Assembly: GCF_006345805.1 (NCBI RefSeq)
Contig: NC_043015.1
Coordinates: 21,204,001 to 21,268,000 of the forward strand
Direction: 5' to 3'
Origin: Octopus sinensis
Lineage: Eukaryota
Length of the DNA stretch: 64,000 bases
Shown here: in pieces, positions 603 through 40,097 of the stretch
Position numbering within the stretch: position 1 is the first letter of the stretch
Layout of the letters: every line of letters begins with the position of its first letter
Program-made: the position numbers and the translations under genes
Notes under the pieces: generated by a model
Databases searched by the model: none
Told to the model about the DNA's origin: nothing
What the model saw: only the letters and a program-made list of their open reading frames with translations

Positions 603-678
603 ACTCTACTGACGATTCGAAAATACTTATGTAAGTAAAACTACATAATCTATTAACGATGAAACAATTGTATAGAGT
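603..678 (+). ncRNA. Minimal type I hammerhead ribozyme motif (Penelope-type)
   Basis: Stem I actcta(603-608)/tagagt(673-678); core CTGACGA(609-615); short stem II tcg/cga with long loop; GAAA(661-664); palindromic helix III ACAATTGT(664-671); GTA cleavage triplet(670-672). Confidence 0.75.
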
Positions 679-914
679 TAACCTATTTTTTCGTTATTTT
701 TCATTTGTCCTGCTCGCTTACATTCTTGGCGTTTTGAATTAATTCTTGAGAACAATTCTTTAGTGGCGGATTCCCTTTGCGGATCTATATCTAGCGTTAG
801 AGTGACCACATGGTGGACTCTCTCTTATTATTTGTATATATATATATATATATATATATATATATATATATATATATATATATATATATATATATATATA
901 TATATATATATATA

Positions 915-970
915 TATACTTTATTTAAAGCAGCAGAAAATTCTACAAAACCTGTTACTCTGAGTTTCAC
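915..970 (-). mobile_element. Truncated copy of the hammerhead-bearing short element also seen at 37108-37312
   Basis: ctttatttaaagcagcagaaaattctacaaaacctgttactctgagtttc matches 37180-37229; the minus strand reads GAAACTCAGAGTAacagg (hammerhead 3' half). Adjacent to a (TA)n run. Confidence 0.7.
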
Positions 971-1312
971 AGTAGGGTAAAACCCTGAAAGCCTCAAGTG
1001 TTTGTAGAATACGGTCGGTGTGTAAGTACCAAATCTAATTTCAACCTTACGTCCAACTTAGTGTTGGTTTAGATGTGGCGCAGGTATAAAAATCAGATCA
1101 GTGATGGGATTTAAATTTTTGCGACTACTATTGGGGTAGAATTTTATTGATGTATTCATGTATTACATCATAACAAATAATTCACCATACATAATCTATC
1201 AATTACAAACACACATACACAAACACATACACAGTCTCTCACACACACACACACACACGTATGCGAACTATTTATAGAAAGAAAGGGGGATAGACAAAGG
1301 GAGAGGGCAAAG

Positions 1313-1457
1313 CAAGGATGGCTGTGTTGTAAGAAGCTTGCTTTCCAACCATATAGTTCCGGGTGACAATTTTGGCAAGTGTCTTCTACTATAACCCTGG
1401 GGCCGAACAAAATCTTATGAGTAGATTTGGTGGGCGGAAACTGAAAGAAGACCGTCA
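1313..1457 (+). mobile_element. tRNA-derived SINE family A, 5' part
   Basis: tggctgtgttgtaagaagcttgc...ggcaagtgtcttctactata...gaaactgaaagaag; matches copies at 36558 and 55072. Confidence 0.8.
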
Positions 1458-1509
1458 TATATATATATATATATATATATATATATATGTATATATGTGT
1501 GTGTGTGTG

Positions 1510-2520
1510 AATGGAGCGGTGACATTCTGGAAACACCAAGAGACTGCTATAGTAGTCTATTAAAGACTACTATAAAAAAGCACCAATATTAGGAGCAAGG
1601 GAGAGTTCTTGGTGCAAAGGATCCGTGACTCAATAGAGGAGGATCGCTTGGTGAAGACAGTAGATCTTGTACATTTACGATAATGGATACAGTCGGACAA
1701 GGCACTCAAACATCCACTGTCCTAAAAGGAAGTCTTGGATACTGACCCTGGAAAATTGTTCTTCTCCTTCGTACTTTGCTGACCTCTTGCGAAACTCAAC
1801 CTTAAGAAATAGTGTAAAGAAGGCCGCTCCTGAAAGAAATGTGGAGTAATTCTTTCCACTCTGGATCACATTTTGACCGGATGCCGTTGGACACAGAGAG
1901 AATCCCGATACATATGGAGACATGGCAAGATCCTTGCATAAATCGCTAAATGGACTGAGATGCAAATAGTGAAGGTGCAATCAGTGAAACTCCATTCACA
2001 ACCAGAGGGGGTGAGATTCCTTAAGGAAAGCGACAAAGCACCCAAGAAGAAATCAATAGCAAAGAAGGAGGTTTCAGTTTTGCAATCAACATGAGAATGG
2101 CAGATGAAAGAGGAAACTGAAGGGCAGACTTGTCTTCTCAGAACAGATAGCAGTAACATCATTCCGACTTAAAATGTTCCTGTTCTACGGGATTACAACA
2201 ACCACCCATTTGTGGAAAACCCAGTGTTCTGAGAGGACAGACTCCATATTTCCCTTGGTAAATATTTCGTTAATCAGGAATTGATTTACGAGGCCTTTGT
2301 CGAGGAACGACATGTACCTCATTCTCCATTGAGGTCGGCTTTTGCAGCTTTCCTGCAAAATTAGCGCGCTATTTCTTACAGAAGATATTTCTGGAACGCC
2401 AACTACGGAACGCTGCTCCAGACAAGGTAAAAGTACAGGCTAAGGGTGAAGCAGTTGAGAAACTGCAATACCAACTGACCATACAGAAGGGCTTCTAGCA
2501 TGGTGGTGGATTTAAAAGAA
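1510..2520 (+). pseudogene. Degenerate RLE-type non-LTR retrotransposon (HERO/NeSL/R2-like) ORF C-terminus
   Basis: Frameshifted translation gives LDHILTGC (1861-1884), then RYIWRHGKIL (the RYxWRH motif after the CCHC knuckle), then endonuclease-like VE..VF*EDR and FSIEVG; several stops and frameshifts. Confidence 0.7.
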
Positions 2521-2650
2521 CTTGCCAAACCTGTGAGGAGCTCCTTCAGTTTCTGTATAGGGCAAAGCTTCTCTTATGCTTGTTTCACTAGATTTTAAAA
2601 ATACGCGTTCAGGTTGATTTATATGACTAAATTCATTAAAGGGACGCCCC

Positions 2651-36950: not shown

Positions 36951-37107
36951 TGAGTATATATACATACATACATAGATACATACATACATACACACACACA
37001 CATACACACACATATATACACATACACATACGTAATATGTATGTGCGATTCTTTGTATGAATGAATGTATACCTCGGTCTGGTTTATATGTATATATCTA
37101 AAATATG

Positions 37108-37312
37108 CCGGAGTAAACACATAAATGTGAAACAAGGTGGAAAAAAAGAGTACTGAAATACCAGTGGTAGAGTAATATGCTTTATTTAAAGCAGCAGAAA
37201 ATTCAACAAAACCTGTTTCTCTGAGTTTCCCGTTTCCGTTCGTCGGACGACGAACGGAAACGGGAAACTCTGAGTAACAGGTTTTGTTGAACTTTCTGCT
37301 GCTTAAATAAAG
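37108..37312. mobile_element. 205-bp foldback element with hammerhead-like arms and a 15-bp TSD
   Basis: Direct repeat tatatctaaaatatg at 37093-37107 and 37313-37327; inverted arms of about 70 bp (37175-37245 / 37248-37317) with a 2-nt loop. Confidence 0.85.
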
Positions 37313-37589
37313 TATATCTAAAATATGTACAGTTTGTGACCAAGTCTTTTTACAAATAGTTTTGCTAACGATGAAATGTGTTTAAATCAATATTCTAAAC
37401 TTCTTGACTTAAGAGTTTAATCTTTTTACAGGATAAAATATGTGTCTGCCACACAGGTATTAATTTCAATTTACTGTTTTCGTTTGCGCGTGGCTGTATG
37501 TATGTATGTATATATATATATATATATATATATATATATATATAATATATATATATATATATATATATATATATATAGCGAGAGAGAGA

Positions 37590-38940
37590 TAAGAAATACC
37601 AAAAAGGATCAGTAAAGAATTCATTACTAAATCAATTGAATTCATCCTACATAATAACCACTTCATGTTTGACAATACATTTTACCGTCAAAAATCCGGA
37701 ATTGCTATGGGTACAAGGGCAGCACCAGTCATTGCAAACCTAACAATGGGCTACCTGGAAATAATAATTTACCAGGAATCTTTATTAATCTTTGGAAACC
37801 CCCTCTCTCAATACACAAAAGAGAATTGGAAACGATTCCTGGACGATTGTTTTATACTCTGGAATGAAAACACAGATAAACTCCTAAAATTAAAAAACCT
37901 ATTGAACAGCATAAACCCAAATATACAGTTCACAATGGAATACAACCAAAAGGAGCTCCCATTCTTGGATATACTAATTAAAAAAATTAACCTTAAAATA
38001 GAAACAGACATTTTTTACAAAGCCACAGACGCCAAACAATACCTTCTTTTATTCATGCCACCCAAGACACACTAAAACAAACATCCCCTTCAACCTTGCA
38101 AGAAGGATATGCACAATAGTGTCAGAACAAAATACCAGGAACTTTAGACTGCAAGAACTCAAAAACACCCTAATTGACAGACATTACCCAGCTCAACTCA
38201 TAGAGGATGGGATCAGACGTGCAACAGAAATCAACATAGAAACTTTAAGAAAAGTTCAACACAACAACACACCTTCCCCGAAAATACTACCTTAAATATC
38301 TACATACAACCCCAGAAACAAAGAAGCCTTCACCATCATCACCCAGAATTTACCAATACTTCAGAAGGACCCCAAATTAAAGGAAATTCTAAACATACAC
38401 CAAATCATTAAAAGCTACAAACAACCTAAATCATTTAAAAAGATTCTCACAAAGGCAAAATTGTTTTCTGAAATTACGGATGCAAAAGTAAAAAGATGTG
38501 GTAGACCAAACTGTGCAACATGTCCAAACCTGTTAGAAGGATCAGAATTCCTCTTCAAAGAGGGACAGAAATTCAAGATCAAATCTAACTTTACTTGTGC
38601 CTCTGAAAACATAATTTATGTCATAAAATGCTCGGGCTGCCACCAAGACTACGTGGGATCCACGGGACTATCACTCAGACGTAGATGCACACTGCATCGA
38701 CAACAGATTGCGTTCCCAGAATACAGAATGATACCTTTTAGTGAGCACATTGAGAAATGCGCAAAGCAACTACTACCACAATTCTTAATCTTTCCATTTT
38801 ACCAATGTACTATCGGATCATCAACACAAATTAGACTAAACAAGGAAACATTCTTCATTGAAAAGTACAAGCCCAGACTTAACCATTCCAACATACTGAT
38901 ACAGAGAAATTCACACCAAGGGAAATGCAAAAAAGTTTAA
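37590..38940 (+). pseudogene. 5'-truncated Penelope-like element: RT plus GIY-YIG endonuclease (Neptune-like)
   Basis: FYRQKSGIAMGTRAAP, WKRFLDDCF, LPFLDI, DIFYKATD; frameshift near 38050; stop 38293-38295; CGRPNCATC zinc finger; NIIYVIKCSGCHQDYVGST. Confidence 0.95.
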
Positions 38941-39049
38941 GCGATTATCTCCCTTACACCGGAAGAAATCACTTATTACCTCTCCTTAGCTAGAACTCTT
39001 TTGAACATAAACATAACGATAACTCTTCTCAACATAAACATAACGACGT

Positions 39050-39088
39050 AAGAAATTTGAAAAGCTAAACGCGAAACCAGTCTTTCTT
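39050..39088 (+). ncRNA. Degenerate hammerhead in the 3' region (pLTR) of the Penelope copy
   Basis: aagaaa/tttctt stem I, TTGAAAA (mutated CTGAAGA), GC..GC stem II, GAAACCAGTC; lies 110 nt after the ORF stop. Confidence 0.5.
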
Positions 39089-39782
39089 CTAAACTATGTC
39101 ATTGTAAGAAAAAATTTATAATATTCTTCACACATATTGACTCAAATATATATTTTTTAACCTTTTAAAACAAGCCTTCTGTAGTTTTTTCACTTTTTAC
39201 TATTTTCTATATATATATATATATATATACATGGGTGTGTGCGTGTTTGTATGTATGCATACCCCTAAGGAATGAGGGAAACAGAAAATGGAATTCACGA
39301 GAATCTTTATTCATCACATCAATCGTTTGGAGCCATCTTAGATCGGACTTTTGCGGATGGGATATTATACAACGGATGGTACTGCGTCCTCTGGTGTAGA
39401 CATATCACGTCAGGTAACTTTTTAAAAAAATCATACCTTACTCAGTATGAAATATATATTATAGTGGGGTAGGTCGGTTAATTGAGTTACTCTTGTTACT
39501 GATGGCCTGAGACCACACAGTCGAAGATCGCTGGACAATGGCAAAGAGAAATAATCATTTAGTGTTTACACTTAAAAATGAGACTTTTCCCCCTCCATAC
39601 TTTAAAGAGGTCTCAGGCCAGCAGTGTTTAGGGAGTGAGGATACGCCGTAAGGCCAAACTCTTACGAGCGAAAAACCCAGGGTAACCTTATAAACTGGCC
39701 TACACCACTATAATATTAACTGCTCTACATCTTAGAGTGATGTGCTTCTACTCCGGATTATTGTATTTCTACAAATGATCCT

Positions 39783-40097
39783 TACATTATTTGTCCTCAG
39801 CTTTTTTGTTGTTAACACAACGTTTCGGCTGATATACCCCCTCCCCAGCCTTCAGGTGTCCTGGGGAAATTTCGAACCTATGTCCTCATTCCTAAGGTAT
39901 TTTTCAATGATATTATTATTGTTATTATTATTATTATTATTATTAGTAATAGTAGTAGTATTCAGGTCACTGCCTGGTATTGAACTCGGAATCTTAGGGT
40001 TAGTAGCACGCGCTCTAAACCACTACGCCATATGCCAGTAGGCAAATGTAAATAATGTAAATAATGTACATGATTCCTAATTTTTTAGATATAGAAA
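39783..40097 (-). mobile_element. tRNA-headed SINE with hammerhead-type 3' region and inverted tail
   Basis: Minus-strand head 39965-40036 (TGGCGTAGTGG A box, GAGTTCAATACC B box), (AAT)n, then gacac-CTGA[TGA missing]AGGCTG...CAGCC-GAAACGTT-gtgtt at 39814-39860; plus-strand tail 40045-40097 matches 31480-31520. Confidence 0.75.

Follow-up and report, generated by a model that had tools for sequence, protein, structure and literature searches.

Hammerhead motifs of the window

The hammerhead motifs in this 64,000-nucleotide stretch of Octopus sinensis DNA (the whole of which we call the window) are real, and most of them are damaged. We read them, with a probability of roughly two in three, as type I hammerheads of the Penelope kind, one of them sitting in the 3' UTR of a Penelope-like element (PLE) that is broken and the others being terminal (pseudo-LTR) remnants of several other PLE families. 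Directly observed are the anatomy of the hammerheads, the 3' UTR position of the motif at 39050, inverted pairs, adjacency to (TA)n and the high abundance of two of the families.

The initial annotation had counted about ten hammerhead-like motifs, and hammerhead-type letters are indeed present at all 12 of the places it cited, differing in preservation. An exact CUGANGA core with GAAA, palindromic helix III, NUH and helix I occurs at two places (603 and 22304), a single deviation from or loss in the core within otherwise full anatomy at five (12821, 13434, 22584, 39050 and 39814), and only the 3' half, without intact 5' core or helix I, at five (940–970, 19215, 23461, 31408–31445 and 37210–37282). 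The claim of at least five unrelated contexts is exceeded, as the motifs fall into nine families with no cross-family blastn match at E<0.05. Two of these, D (20852, minus strand, with an inverted partner at 21064) and H (62821), lie beyond the 12 places. Most window copies, cut inside the core or mutated, are probably inert.

The combination of CUGANGA, GAAA, NUH and helix I is found with exact core at 609, 20852 and 22310, in the U3-A8 form at 39050 and, by way of other copies, in family C. A palindromic 15.2–16.2 or loop 3 can be read directly in families G, D, F and C and in the family B copy at 23461; at 39050 it appears in other copies and is broken in the window copy, family A has an odd central base in helix III, and family E has an AA loop and is non-palindromic. 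G10.1-C11.1 and an extra base after A9 occur together in C (other copies), E and F; G10.1-C11.1 stands without the extra base at 39050, and the pair is U.U in the family G copy at 609 and G.U in the family B copy at 22310.

Family G (603–678, plus strand) has its exact core at 609, a palindromic helix III (ACAAUUGU), position 17 at 672 and a long helix II with a side hairpin, the unit ending at (TA)n at 837. The complete family B hammerhead (22304–22389, plus) has its exact core at 22310, a 6-bp helix I, a 55-nt extended helix II, helix III ACAUGUGU and position 17 at 22383, and ends at (TA)n at 22437. Other family B pieces are a 5'-truncated copy (19167–19278, plus) cut inside helix II, lacking the core and ending at (TA)n; an inverted short 3' end (21950–21987, minus) about 320 nt upstream of the 22310 core; and a copy (23447–23583, plus) that is cut inside the core by a 16-nt inverted 3' end and has the perfect palindrome ACAUAUGU. 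The family E hammerhead (22583–22628, minus; A9>C, 6-bp helix II) belongs to a unit set tail to tail with family B, with a common (TA)n run at their ends. In the inverted pair of family D, the left arm (20812–20857, minus) has an exact core at 20852, a 5-bp helix I, the palindrome AUAAUUAU and a decayed helix II, and the right arm (21059–21104, plus) has an exact core, U16.1 changed to G and a mismatched helix I; the arms share 80% column identity. Family A is represented by 3' halves only, one (919–968, minus) with GAAA, ACUC.GAGU, the helix I 3' strand, AAUAAA and a TA tail and without 5' core, and two more in a fold-back (37175–37317) without intact core or helix I 5' strand. The family F minimal hammerhead (12820–12855, plus) shows A6>U, an extra A after A9, a 4-bp helix II and an ACGU helix III.

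A Penelope-like copy with a hammerhead in its 3' UTR

The ORF remnant at 37593–38940 (plus strand) is a 5'-truncated Penelope-like sequence with RT, a CX4CxxC linker and, at its C terminus, GIY-YIG with CCHH. The linker (CX2-5CxxC) and CCHH motif are visible directly in the translation, the Pfam RVT_1 and GIY-YIG matches being weak and below gathering. It is 72–79% identical to P0001 over residues 223–654, starts at residue 223 of a 659-aa relative (the 5' third is absent) and has its reading frame shifted near 38046 and interrupted by an in-frame stop at 38293–38295; other copies, as seen in contigs, differ at both sites. The copy at 37590–38940 had been named as a mobiliser, a role that we withdraw: because it is 5'-truncated, frameshifted and stop-interrupted, it mobilises nothing, and only its family could act.

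Its 3' UTR or pseudo-LTR (38941–39209, plus), delimited by contig depth, ends at (TA)n at about 39210. Depth is high from the ORF through the hammerhead to 39216 and then drops, and a single contig (run X18, record 8) covers 38854–39197, joining ORF to 3' UTR. The hammerhead (39050–39088, plus) lies about 110 nt downstream of the end of the GIY-YIG ORF and has a 6-bp helix I with one bulged U, a UUGAAAA (U3-A8) core and a 2-bp helix II. In other copies its helix III reads as the palindrome ACCGGU, position 39079 being G in 96–100% of the depth in 4 of 4 runs. A UUGAAAA core of the U3-A8 type has been printed for a Schistosoma PLE (PMC4209133), and a U3-A8 scan gives one match in the window, a number equalled by 1 of 100 shuffles. 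The direct link between hammerhead and Penelope holds for 39050 only.

Endonuclease-bearing (EN+) PLEs such as Neptune/Nematis (Craig et al. 2021, PMC8557442; Frangieh et al. 2024, PMC11167929) have in common with the window the order of RT and then C-terminal GIY-YIG, the CX2-5CxxC linker, the CCHH motif, 5' truncation, inverted 5'-truncated partners, AT-rich or (TA)n targets and an optional 3' tail. The window copy differs in being broken and in lacking a full tandem with two pseudo-LTRs, and it is placed as Neptune/Nematis type jointly.

Probable terminal remnants of other Penelope-like families

Six inverted arrangements are present (31305/31519, 37175/37317, 20852/21064, 21950/22440, 23447/23583 and 40040/39788), and inverted truncated arrangements have been described for PLE insertions (PMC4209133, PMC8557442). 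With a 200-nt threshold chosen post hoc on data already inspected, (TA)n follows downstream in 10 of 16 loci and precedes upstream in 2 of 16, against a background of 24% (P ~0.001); taking one locus per family, the downstream figure is 7 of 9. Together with the hammerhead in the PLE 3' UTR, these marks support a spread of the motifs in the Penelope manner; the earlier assignment to Penelope-type type I hammerheads with palindromic helix III is likewise supported. Further points for the PLE-tail explanation are the U3-A8 core at 39050, the ACCGGU of its other copies and the fit of family C, in its other copies, to the published consensus.

Against it, a profile built from 81 relatives of one clade finds no PLE coding remnant beside the motifs of the other eight families, although the family B copy at 22310 retains about 320 nt upstream and the family E copy at 22622 about 260 nt, compared with the 110-nt spacing of ORF and hammerhead in the PLE copy. 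Also against it stand the placing of family C (0 of 3 loci near (TA)n, and a Pol III-type head at one locus), the zero matches to the strict descriptor, and the stems of family B, where three copies show no two-sided covariation.

Single minimal hammerheads as truncated PLE remnants, with opposite-strand pairs 100–700 bp apart, have already been reported (Cervera and de la Peña 2014, PMC4209133). Those hammerheads and the ones in the window share type I topology, a palindromic 15.2–16.2 or loop 3, an extra base between 9 and 10.1 (window families C and F), the U3-A8 variant (39050), many unrelated families per genome that are mostly single motifs or opposite-strand pairs, and 5'-truncated PLEs that keep only the 3' hammerhead. 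The window differs in that every copy falls outside the strict descriptor and in the helix II arms of families B and G, 45–55 nt as against a published loop limit of 10; cephalopods are absent from the 56-row alignment, as is the A6>U of family F. Truncated PLE remnants of this published sort would suffice for eight of the nine families, which the initial annotation had taken for non-autonomous families; only family C gives a sign of such a state, at one locus. Read in this way, the window extends a known pattern, that of scattered truncated PLE hammerhead tails, to another genome. Several of its shapes escape the published descriptor, namely extended helix II arms, palindromes of 8 nt and, in an element of Neptune/Nematis type, a U3-A8 core; they help annotation and are not surprising.

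The other eight families would presumably have had PLE parents. In the proposed course of insertion, the PLE protein would nick AT-rich DNA such as (TA)n, and reverse transcription would begin shortly downstream of the hammerhead and in most cases halt early, which would leave a 50–450-nt tail, often with a shorter second copy inverted at its 5' end. The hammerhead of the parent element would cleave weakly, if at all, either as a dimer via palindromic helix III or assisted by the PLE protein. For an octopus genome, 190 PLE families amounting to 6.83% of its DNA have been reported, a number sufficient to supply many unrelated tails.

Family C and its putative Pol III head

Family C, and perhaps others, may instead be a true non-autonomous element in which a Pol III head of tRNA origin is followed by an (AAT)n spacer and then by a hammerhead tail of PLE type. 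Pol III would transcribe this element and a PLE protein would copy it, which would make it a SINE dependent on Penelope instead of a LINE. We regard this as a serious possibility that falls somewhat short of even odds. It is compatible with the PLE-tail explanation for the other families.

The main copy (39788–39900, minus strand) consists of the family C body and a minimal hammerhead (39812–39860) from which 3 nt of core are absent; other copies carry CUGAUGA and an extra A (loose-end contig consensus, 4 of 4 runs) and match the published PLE hammerhead consensus. Beyond an (AAT)n stretch lies a head resembling a Pol III A-box and B-box (39977–40030, minus), and directly against its 5' side an inverted family C 3' tail (40040–40096, plus) that ends at (TA)n. 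The ends of family C fall within microsatellites or close to them. A strict A/B-box pattern, written, like the looser one, from the box consensus, has its sole window match at 40030 on the minus strand (2 of 300 shuffles), the strand of the family C core, and lies 175 nt upstream of that core. As the inverted tail, which is missing from the main copy after 39788, abuts the head, the head would lie inside one PLE-style unit. Family C also has the highest contig depth of the examined stretch, 1.8–2.2 million compared with 88–93 in the lowest bin (the stretch ends at 39900, with the head outside it), and its other copies reach upstream of the core by at least 45 nt. From the head to the 3' end there is no run of four T, a weak sign because it is common to the arms of family D, which likewise lack T runs.

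The association of head and family C is, however, seen at one locus, and with 7 tRNA-type heads found in the window by a looser pattern their adjacency could be due to chance, or the head and (AAT)n could together make up a short SINE of their own. The head was not called as a tRNA (ARAGORN, 0 genes; Rfam tRNA, no match; fold z +1.13); SINE heads often fail tRNA-recognition tests. The other two family C arms, which form an inverted pair at 31305–31519 (31305–31402 minus, 31403–31519 plus), both end inside the core, and no family C 3' end is near (TA)n at the three scored loci. SINEs are normally LINE-dependent, and a ribozyme would be expected to cut off the head of a SINE. An active ribozyme would sever the head from its own transcript, as has been argued for LINE ribozymes (PMC5786205); PLE hammerhead cleavage was dispensable for insertion in vitro (PMC11167929).

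On this tentative reading family C, with roughly ten thousand or more copies, would combine a tRNA-derived head with a PLE pseudo-LTR tail and an intact minimal hammerhead, surviving as a ribozyme that is silent as a monomer and forms part of the RNA recognised by the PLE protein. A Pol III SINE carried by Penelope would be the finding of larger significance, as a short natural substrate for studying template choice by the PLE protein and the purpose of the hammerhead. The SINE-like Sm-alpha and Sj-alpha of Schistosoma (PMC6765202) would share the order of Pol III promoter and then hammerhead, provided that the head belongs to family C; according to that review their hammerheads are canonical, active and in tandem, whereas those of family C are minimal, PLE-type and found in PLE-style inverted insertions.

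Tandem units and retrozymes

The term "retrozyme-like" in the initial annotation implies several dispersed families whose multimeric transcripts self-cleave, circularise and re-insert via PLE proteins. Type I hammerheads with dimer-type helix III and the lack of adjoining coding sequence in eight of nine families agree with this, as does the literature proposal that retrozymes arose from PLE pseudo-LTRs and left dispersed monomers behind. Animal non-LTR retrozymes (Cervera and de la Peña 2020, PMC7229834; Li, Clavereau and Pollet 2026, 10.64898/2026.07.22.740005) are likewise non-coding, carry type I hammerheads and have a proposed PLE origin and PLE dependence. What defines them, however, is a tandem of units that each contain a complete hammerhead, in most cases canonical and cleaving efficiently, minimal ones being assigned to PLEs, whereas the window copies occur singly or inverted and are minimal and for the most part truncated. 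No tandem repeat in the window (periods to 500) has two or more successive units that each hold a complete hammerhead. At a score of at least 150 no tandem array of period 62–500 appears, and of the 23 repeat rows none is a hammerhead unit.

The one formal case of two hammerheads in tandem is a 613-bp local duplication (12351–12973 and 12965–13585; 618 of 618 aligned letters identical), which supplies an identical second copy of the family F hammerhead (13433–13468, plus). Its unit begins inside another SINE, includes part of that SINE and other sequence, and carries the A6>U core; it is consistent with segmental duplication or with an artefact of assembly. Since both lie inside it, 12821 and 13434 count as one event. 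We consider the retrozyme reading improbable and retain terminal PLE remnants as the preferred explanation.

Comparison with shuffled sequence

The null was provided by 200-nt local dinucleotide shuffles. The published minimal-hammerhead RNAmotif descriptor (Fig. S7) has no match in the window, and two identical ones (12824 and 13437) when one core mismatch is allowed. An exact core with palindromic helix III and a loop 2 of at most 50 nt gives two matches, reached by 0 of 200 shuffles, and an exact core with an 8-nt palindrome and a helix I of at least 4 bp gives three (shuffle maximum 0 in 200). A scored scan, designed post hoc with the sites already known, returns seven matches at a score of at least 20 (six independent), compared with a shuffle mean of 0.87 and maximum of 3 in 60 shuffles. 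The expected excess over dinucleotide-shuffled sequence is therefore found with the relaxed descriptors and not with the strict one. Rfam has no match in the window at gathering scores, and single-sequence folds of eight motifs do not beat their shuffles (z -1.6 to +1.0). Among the three copies of family B, two-sided change affects 0 of 31 pairs and one-sided consistent change six, a result that is not above shuffles (294 of 500).

That the motifs are chance matches within AT-rich, repeat-rich DNA is very improbable, and for families G, B, C and D and for the PLE it has by now been refuted in large part: the published descriptor and Rfam both find none and the folds are no better than shuffles, but the two and three matches of the relaxed descriptors were never attained in 200 shuffles, and other copies restore the family C core and the 39050 palindrome exactly where the window copies deviate. 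The single weak sites at 62821 and 42884 could be chance matches. The former is the exact core of the decayed family H hammerhead (62815–62876, plus; score 21.3), which has a CAAUUG palindrome with one flanking change and lies outside the range of the initial annotation.

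Results

Every one of the twelve sites cited in the initial annotation carries a hammerhead motif, but the motifs are in three states and only two have an exact core with full anatomy. At 603 (core at 609) and 22304 (core at 22310) an exact CUGANGA core and GAAA are accompanied by a palindromic helix III, an NUH site and helix I. The whole anatomy with a single deviation is present in five more, namely 12821 and 13434 (A6>U), 22584 on the minus strand (A9>C), 39050 (a U3-A8 core, with helix III broken in the window copy) and 39814 on the minus strand (core short by three bases), and the other five (940-970, 19215, 23461, 31408-31445 and 37210-37282) consist of the 3' half alone. 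Sites 12821 and 13434 count as a single event because both lie inside a 613-bp local duplication (12351-13585) that is identical at 618/618 aligned letters apart from microsatellite length. Additional motifs, absent from the initial annotation, occur in family D (20852 minus, with an inverted partner at 21064) and at 62821. Where at least five unrelated contexts had been proposed, we find nine (families A to H and that of the Penelope-like element, PLE, described below), with no cross-family blastn match at E<0.05. At 42850-42890 (minus), 51831, 60609 and 32755 the CUGANGA core is exact, but helix II survives only in traces and neither helix I nor helix III is convincing; these are possibly older hammerhead remnants.

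The outcome of the comparison with shuffled sequence depends on the descriptor: the strict published minimal descriptor (PMC4209133) finds 0 motifs in the window, whereas relaxed descriptors exceed 200-nt local dinucleotide shuffles. With one core mismatch allowed, the published descriptor returns two identical motifs, a level reached in 1/200 shuffles. Requiring an exact core, a palindromic helix III and a loop 2 of ≤50 nt selects 609 and 22310 (two matches in 0/200 shuffles); when an exact core is combined with an 8-nt palindrome and ≥4 bp of helix I, the motifs selected are 609, 20852 and 22310 (shuffle maximum 0). A scored scan, designed after the sites were known, gave seven matches at ≥20 against a shuffle mean of 0.87 and maximum of 3 (60 shuffles). 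Candidates at 42884 minus (score 19.9) and 31996 plus (19.7) were set aside with scores inside the shuffle range, as were 3481, 41428, 11077, 26876, 57430, 14301, 16794 and 37195, matched by loose descriptors only.

Rfam gave no match in the window at gathering scores, and the 150 of 384 matches listed from an E-value scan were all microsatellite-driven. Single-strand folding did not separate the motifs from shuffles, co-folding of two copies produced a helix III dimer for the 22310 motif of family B alone (one of five tried, and not counted as support), and two-sided change was found at 0/31 pairs in family B, with three copies only. Independent support for hammerheads beyond chance comes from other copies, present in public sequencing contigs aligned to part of the window. 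In 4/4 runs G makes up 96-100% of the depth at position 39079, so that helix III reads as the palindrome ACCGGU in the 39050 family, and a loose-end consensus at 39839 (151, 269, 67 and 18 contigs in the four runs) shows family C with an intact CUGAUGA core and an extra A.

The PLE copy comprises an ORF remnant (37593..38940, plus) and a 3' UTR to about 39210. It shares 72-79% identity with P0001, a 659-residue relative, across residues 223-654, and since the alignment starts at residue 223 the copy is without its 5' third. This loss, a frameshift close to 38046 and a stop codon at 38293-38295 together mean that the copy, put forward as a mobiliser, cannot act as one. The family to which it belongs is abundant, with a summed contig depth, not equivalent to copy number, of 1-10 x 10^5 across the ORF and 1.4-3.7 x 10^5 in the 3' UTR as far as 39216, the lowest bin being 88-93, and both lesion sites differ in other copies among the aligned contigs. 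One contig, covering 38854-39197, starts at the ORF end, includes the 39050 motif and stops close to the TA tail. The UUGAAAA core of this motif is the U3-A8 variant, a form described for Schistosoma PLEs in PMC4209133; a U3-A8 scan of the window returned 39050 as its single match, equalled in 1/100 shuffles. No other hammerhead in the window is tied directly to a PLE.

The other families bear PLE insertion marks. Six inverted arrangements are present (31305/31519, 37175/37317, 20852/21064, 21950/22440, 23447/23583 and 40040/39788), and (TA)n lies downstream of position 17 in 10/16 loci within 200 nt, a threshold set after data inspection, compared with upstream in 2/16 and with a random-position rate of 24% (P about 0.001); counted as one locus per family, the figure is 7/9. 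The window DNA is AT-rich and full of microsatellites, with repeats like those of octopods. Craig et al., in their account of PLE insertions, report an inverted 5'-truncated partner, an optional tail and a microsatellite bias (PMC8557442). At the (TA)n runs 835-918 (G with A) and 22437-22466 (B with E), the 3' ends of two families enter from opposite sides.

An origin of these eight families as PLE tails has the missing coding remnants counting against it. None was found beside them by tblastn with 152 proteins or with a profile of 81 of these, which represents one clade only, and three-frame reading of the DNA upstream of the motifs gave no endonuclease-like end. Most copies are truncated <90 nt from the core; 260-320 nt of upstream DNA is retained at 22310 (family B) and 22622 (family E), still without a coding remnant. 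Both larger family B insertions follow the same 125-135-bp sequence (21839-21974 and 23327-23462; 71% identical), which may belong to the element or stem from an old local duplication. Family F was found at 0 loci in metagenomes.

Family C has a body at 39788..39900 (minus), and its depth, 1.8-2.2 x 10^6, is the highest of the stretch covered by contigs, in which it reaches at least 39900, 45 nt upstream of the core. The only strict match in the window to consensus Pol III A-box/B-box patterns lies at 40030 minus, past an (AAT)n run (2/300 shuffles), and marks a candidate head at 39977..40030 (minus). The family's 3' tail is absent from the main copy after 39788 and is found inverted at 40040..40096 (plus), abutting the head, an arrangement suggesting that head, spacer and hammerhead were inserted as one unit in PLE style. 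With this strict head upstream and its own inverted tail directly against it, family C may be a Penelope-dependent SINE composed of a Pol III-type head, spacer and hammerhead, a tentative reading to which we give a probability of roughly two in five. The head-body join is seen at one locus only, the head receives no tRNA call, and a looser pattern finds seven tRNA-type heads in the window. The head and its (AAT)n run may also form a SINE of their own. A reading frame at 39736-40038 spanning head and body is spurious and has no protein match, and family C was found at 0 loci each in metagenomes, viral contigs and prokaryote genomes.

Further tRNA-type SINE heads lie in abundant window repeat families at 4308, 58947, 53698, 12494, 13107 and 36602. 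A moderately repeated element (39460-39740; depth up to about 10^4) lies between family C and the PLE tail, with a short inverted match, 39456-39482 versus 39690-39716.

Discussion

The Penelope-dependent SINE reading makes family C one testable lead. The closest printed case, described in PMC6765202, is the Schistosoma SINE that combines Pol III features with a hammerhead. In the open literature searched, we found no report of PLE-type hammerheads in octopus and no tRNA-headed SINE with a PLE hammerhead, and a search of literature texts for four window motifs found none. Family C may already be listed in bioRxiv supplements or in the Zenodo repeat library of PMC13282606; the annotation of Octopus vulgaris in that paper assigns 190 PLE families to 6.83% of the genome.

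The window presents the same picture as PMC4209133, in which Cervera and de la Peña describe many heterogeneous hammerhead families, most of them present as single motifs that are "probably related to truncated PLEs", with opposite-strand pairs 100-700 bp apart (text and Fig. S4A legend). By analogy with PLE biochemistry, as set out in PMC11167929, the PLE protein would nick AT-rich DNA and prime reverse transcription inside the RNA, and early termination would leave short tails that bear a hammerhead and are often paired with an inverted copy. Minimal hammerheads are reported not to cleave as monomers and to cleave weakly as dimers (PMC4209133), and the anole PLE hammerhead needs protein for cleavage, which is itself dispensable for insertion (PMC11167929). 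Because minimal hammerheads cleave poorly and the anole one is protein-dependent, most window copies are probably inert remnants.

The retrozyme label is not earned on the window evidence, since the definition of animal retrozymes calls for a tandem repeat in which successive units each hold a complete hammerhead (10.64898/2026.07.22.740005), these hammerheads are mostly canonical (PMC7229834), and a tandem scan of the window at periods of 62-500 found no array of hammerhead units. The 613-bp duplication starts within another SINE, takes in other sequence and carries A6>U cores, which fits a recent segmental duplication or an assembly artefact. The initial annotation is partly confirmed in its observation and partly supported in its interpretation: the PLE link is direct at 39050 and, through insertion marks, likely elsewhere, and the retrozyme label and the mobiliser copy are not supported.

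Other elements share the window. Three similar non-LTR 3' ends lie at 10757-11263, 26262-27005 and 57029-57616, two of them after (TATC)n runs; the first two match zf-RVT (PF13966) and the third is alike by translation. CCHC zinc knuckle fragments at 34298-35462 (minus) resemble the first ORF of a non-LTR retrotransposon, and 61354-61767 holds an HTH fragment of a Mos1-type mariner transposase (PF17906).
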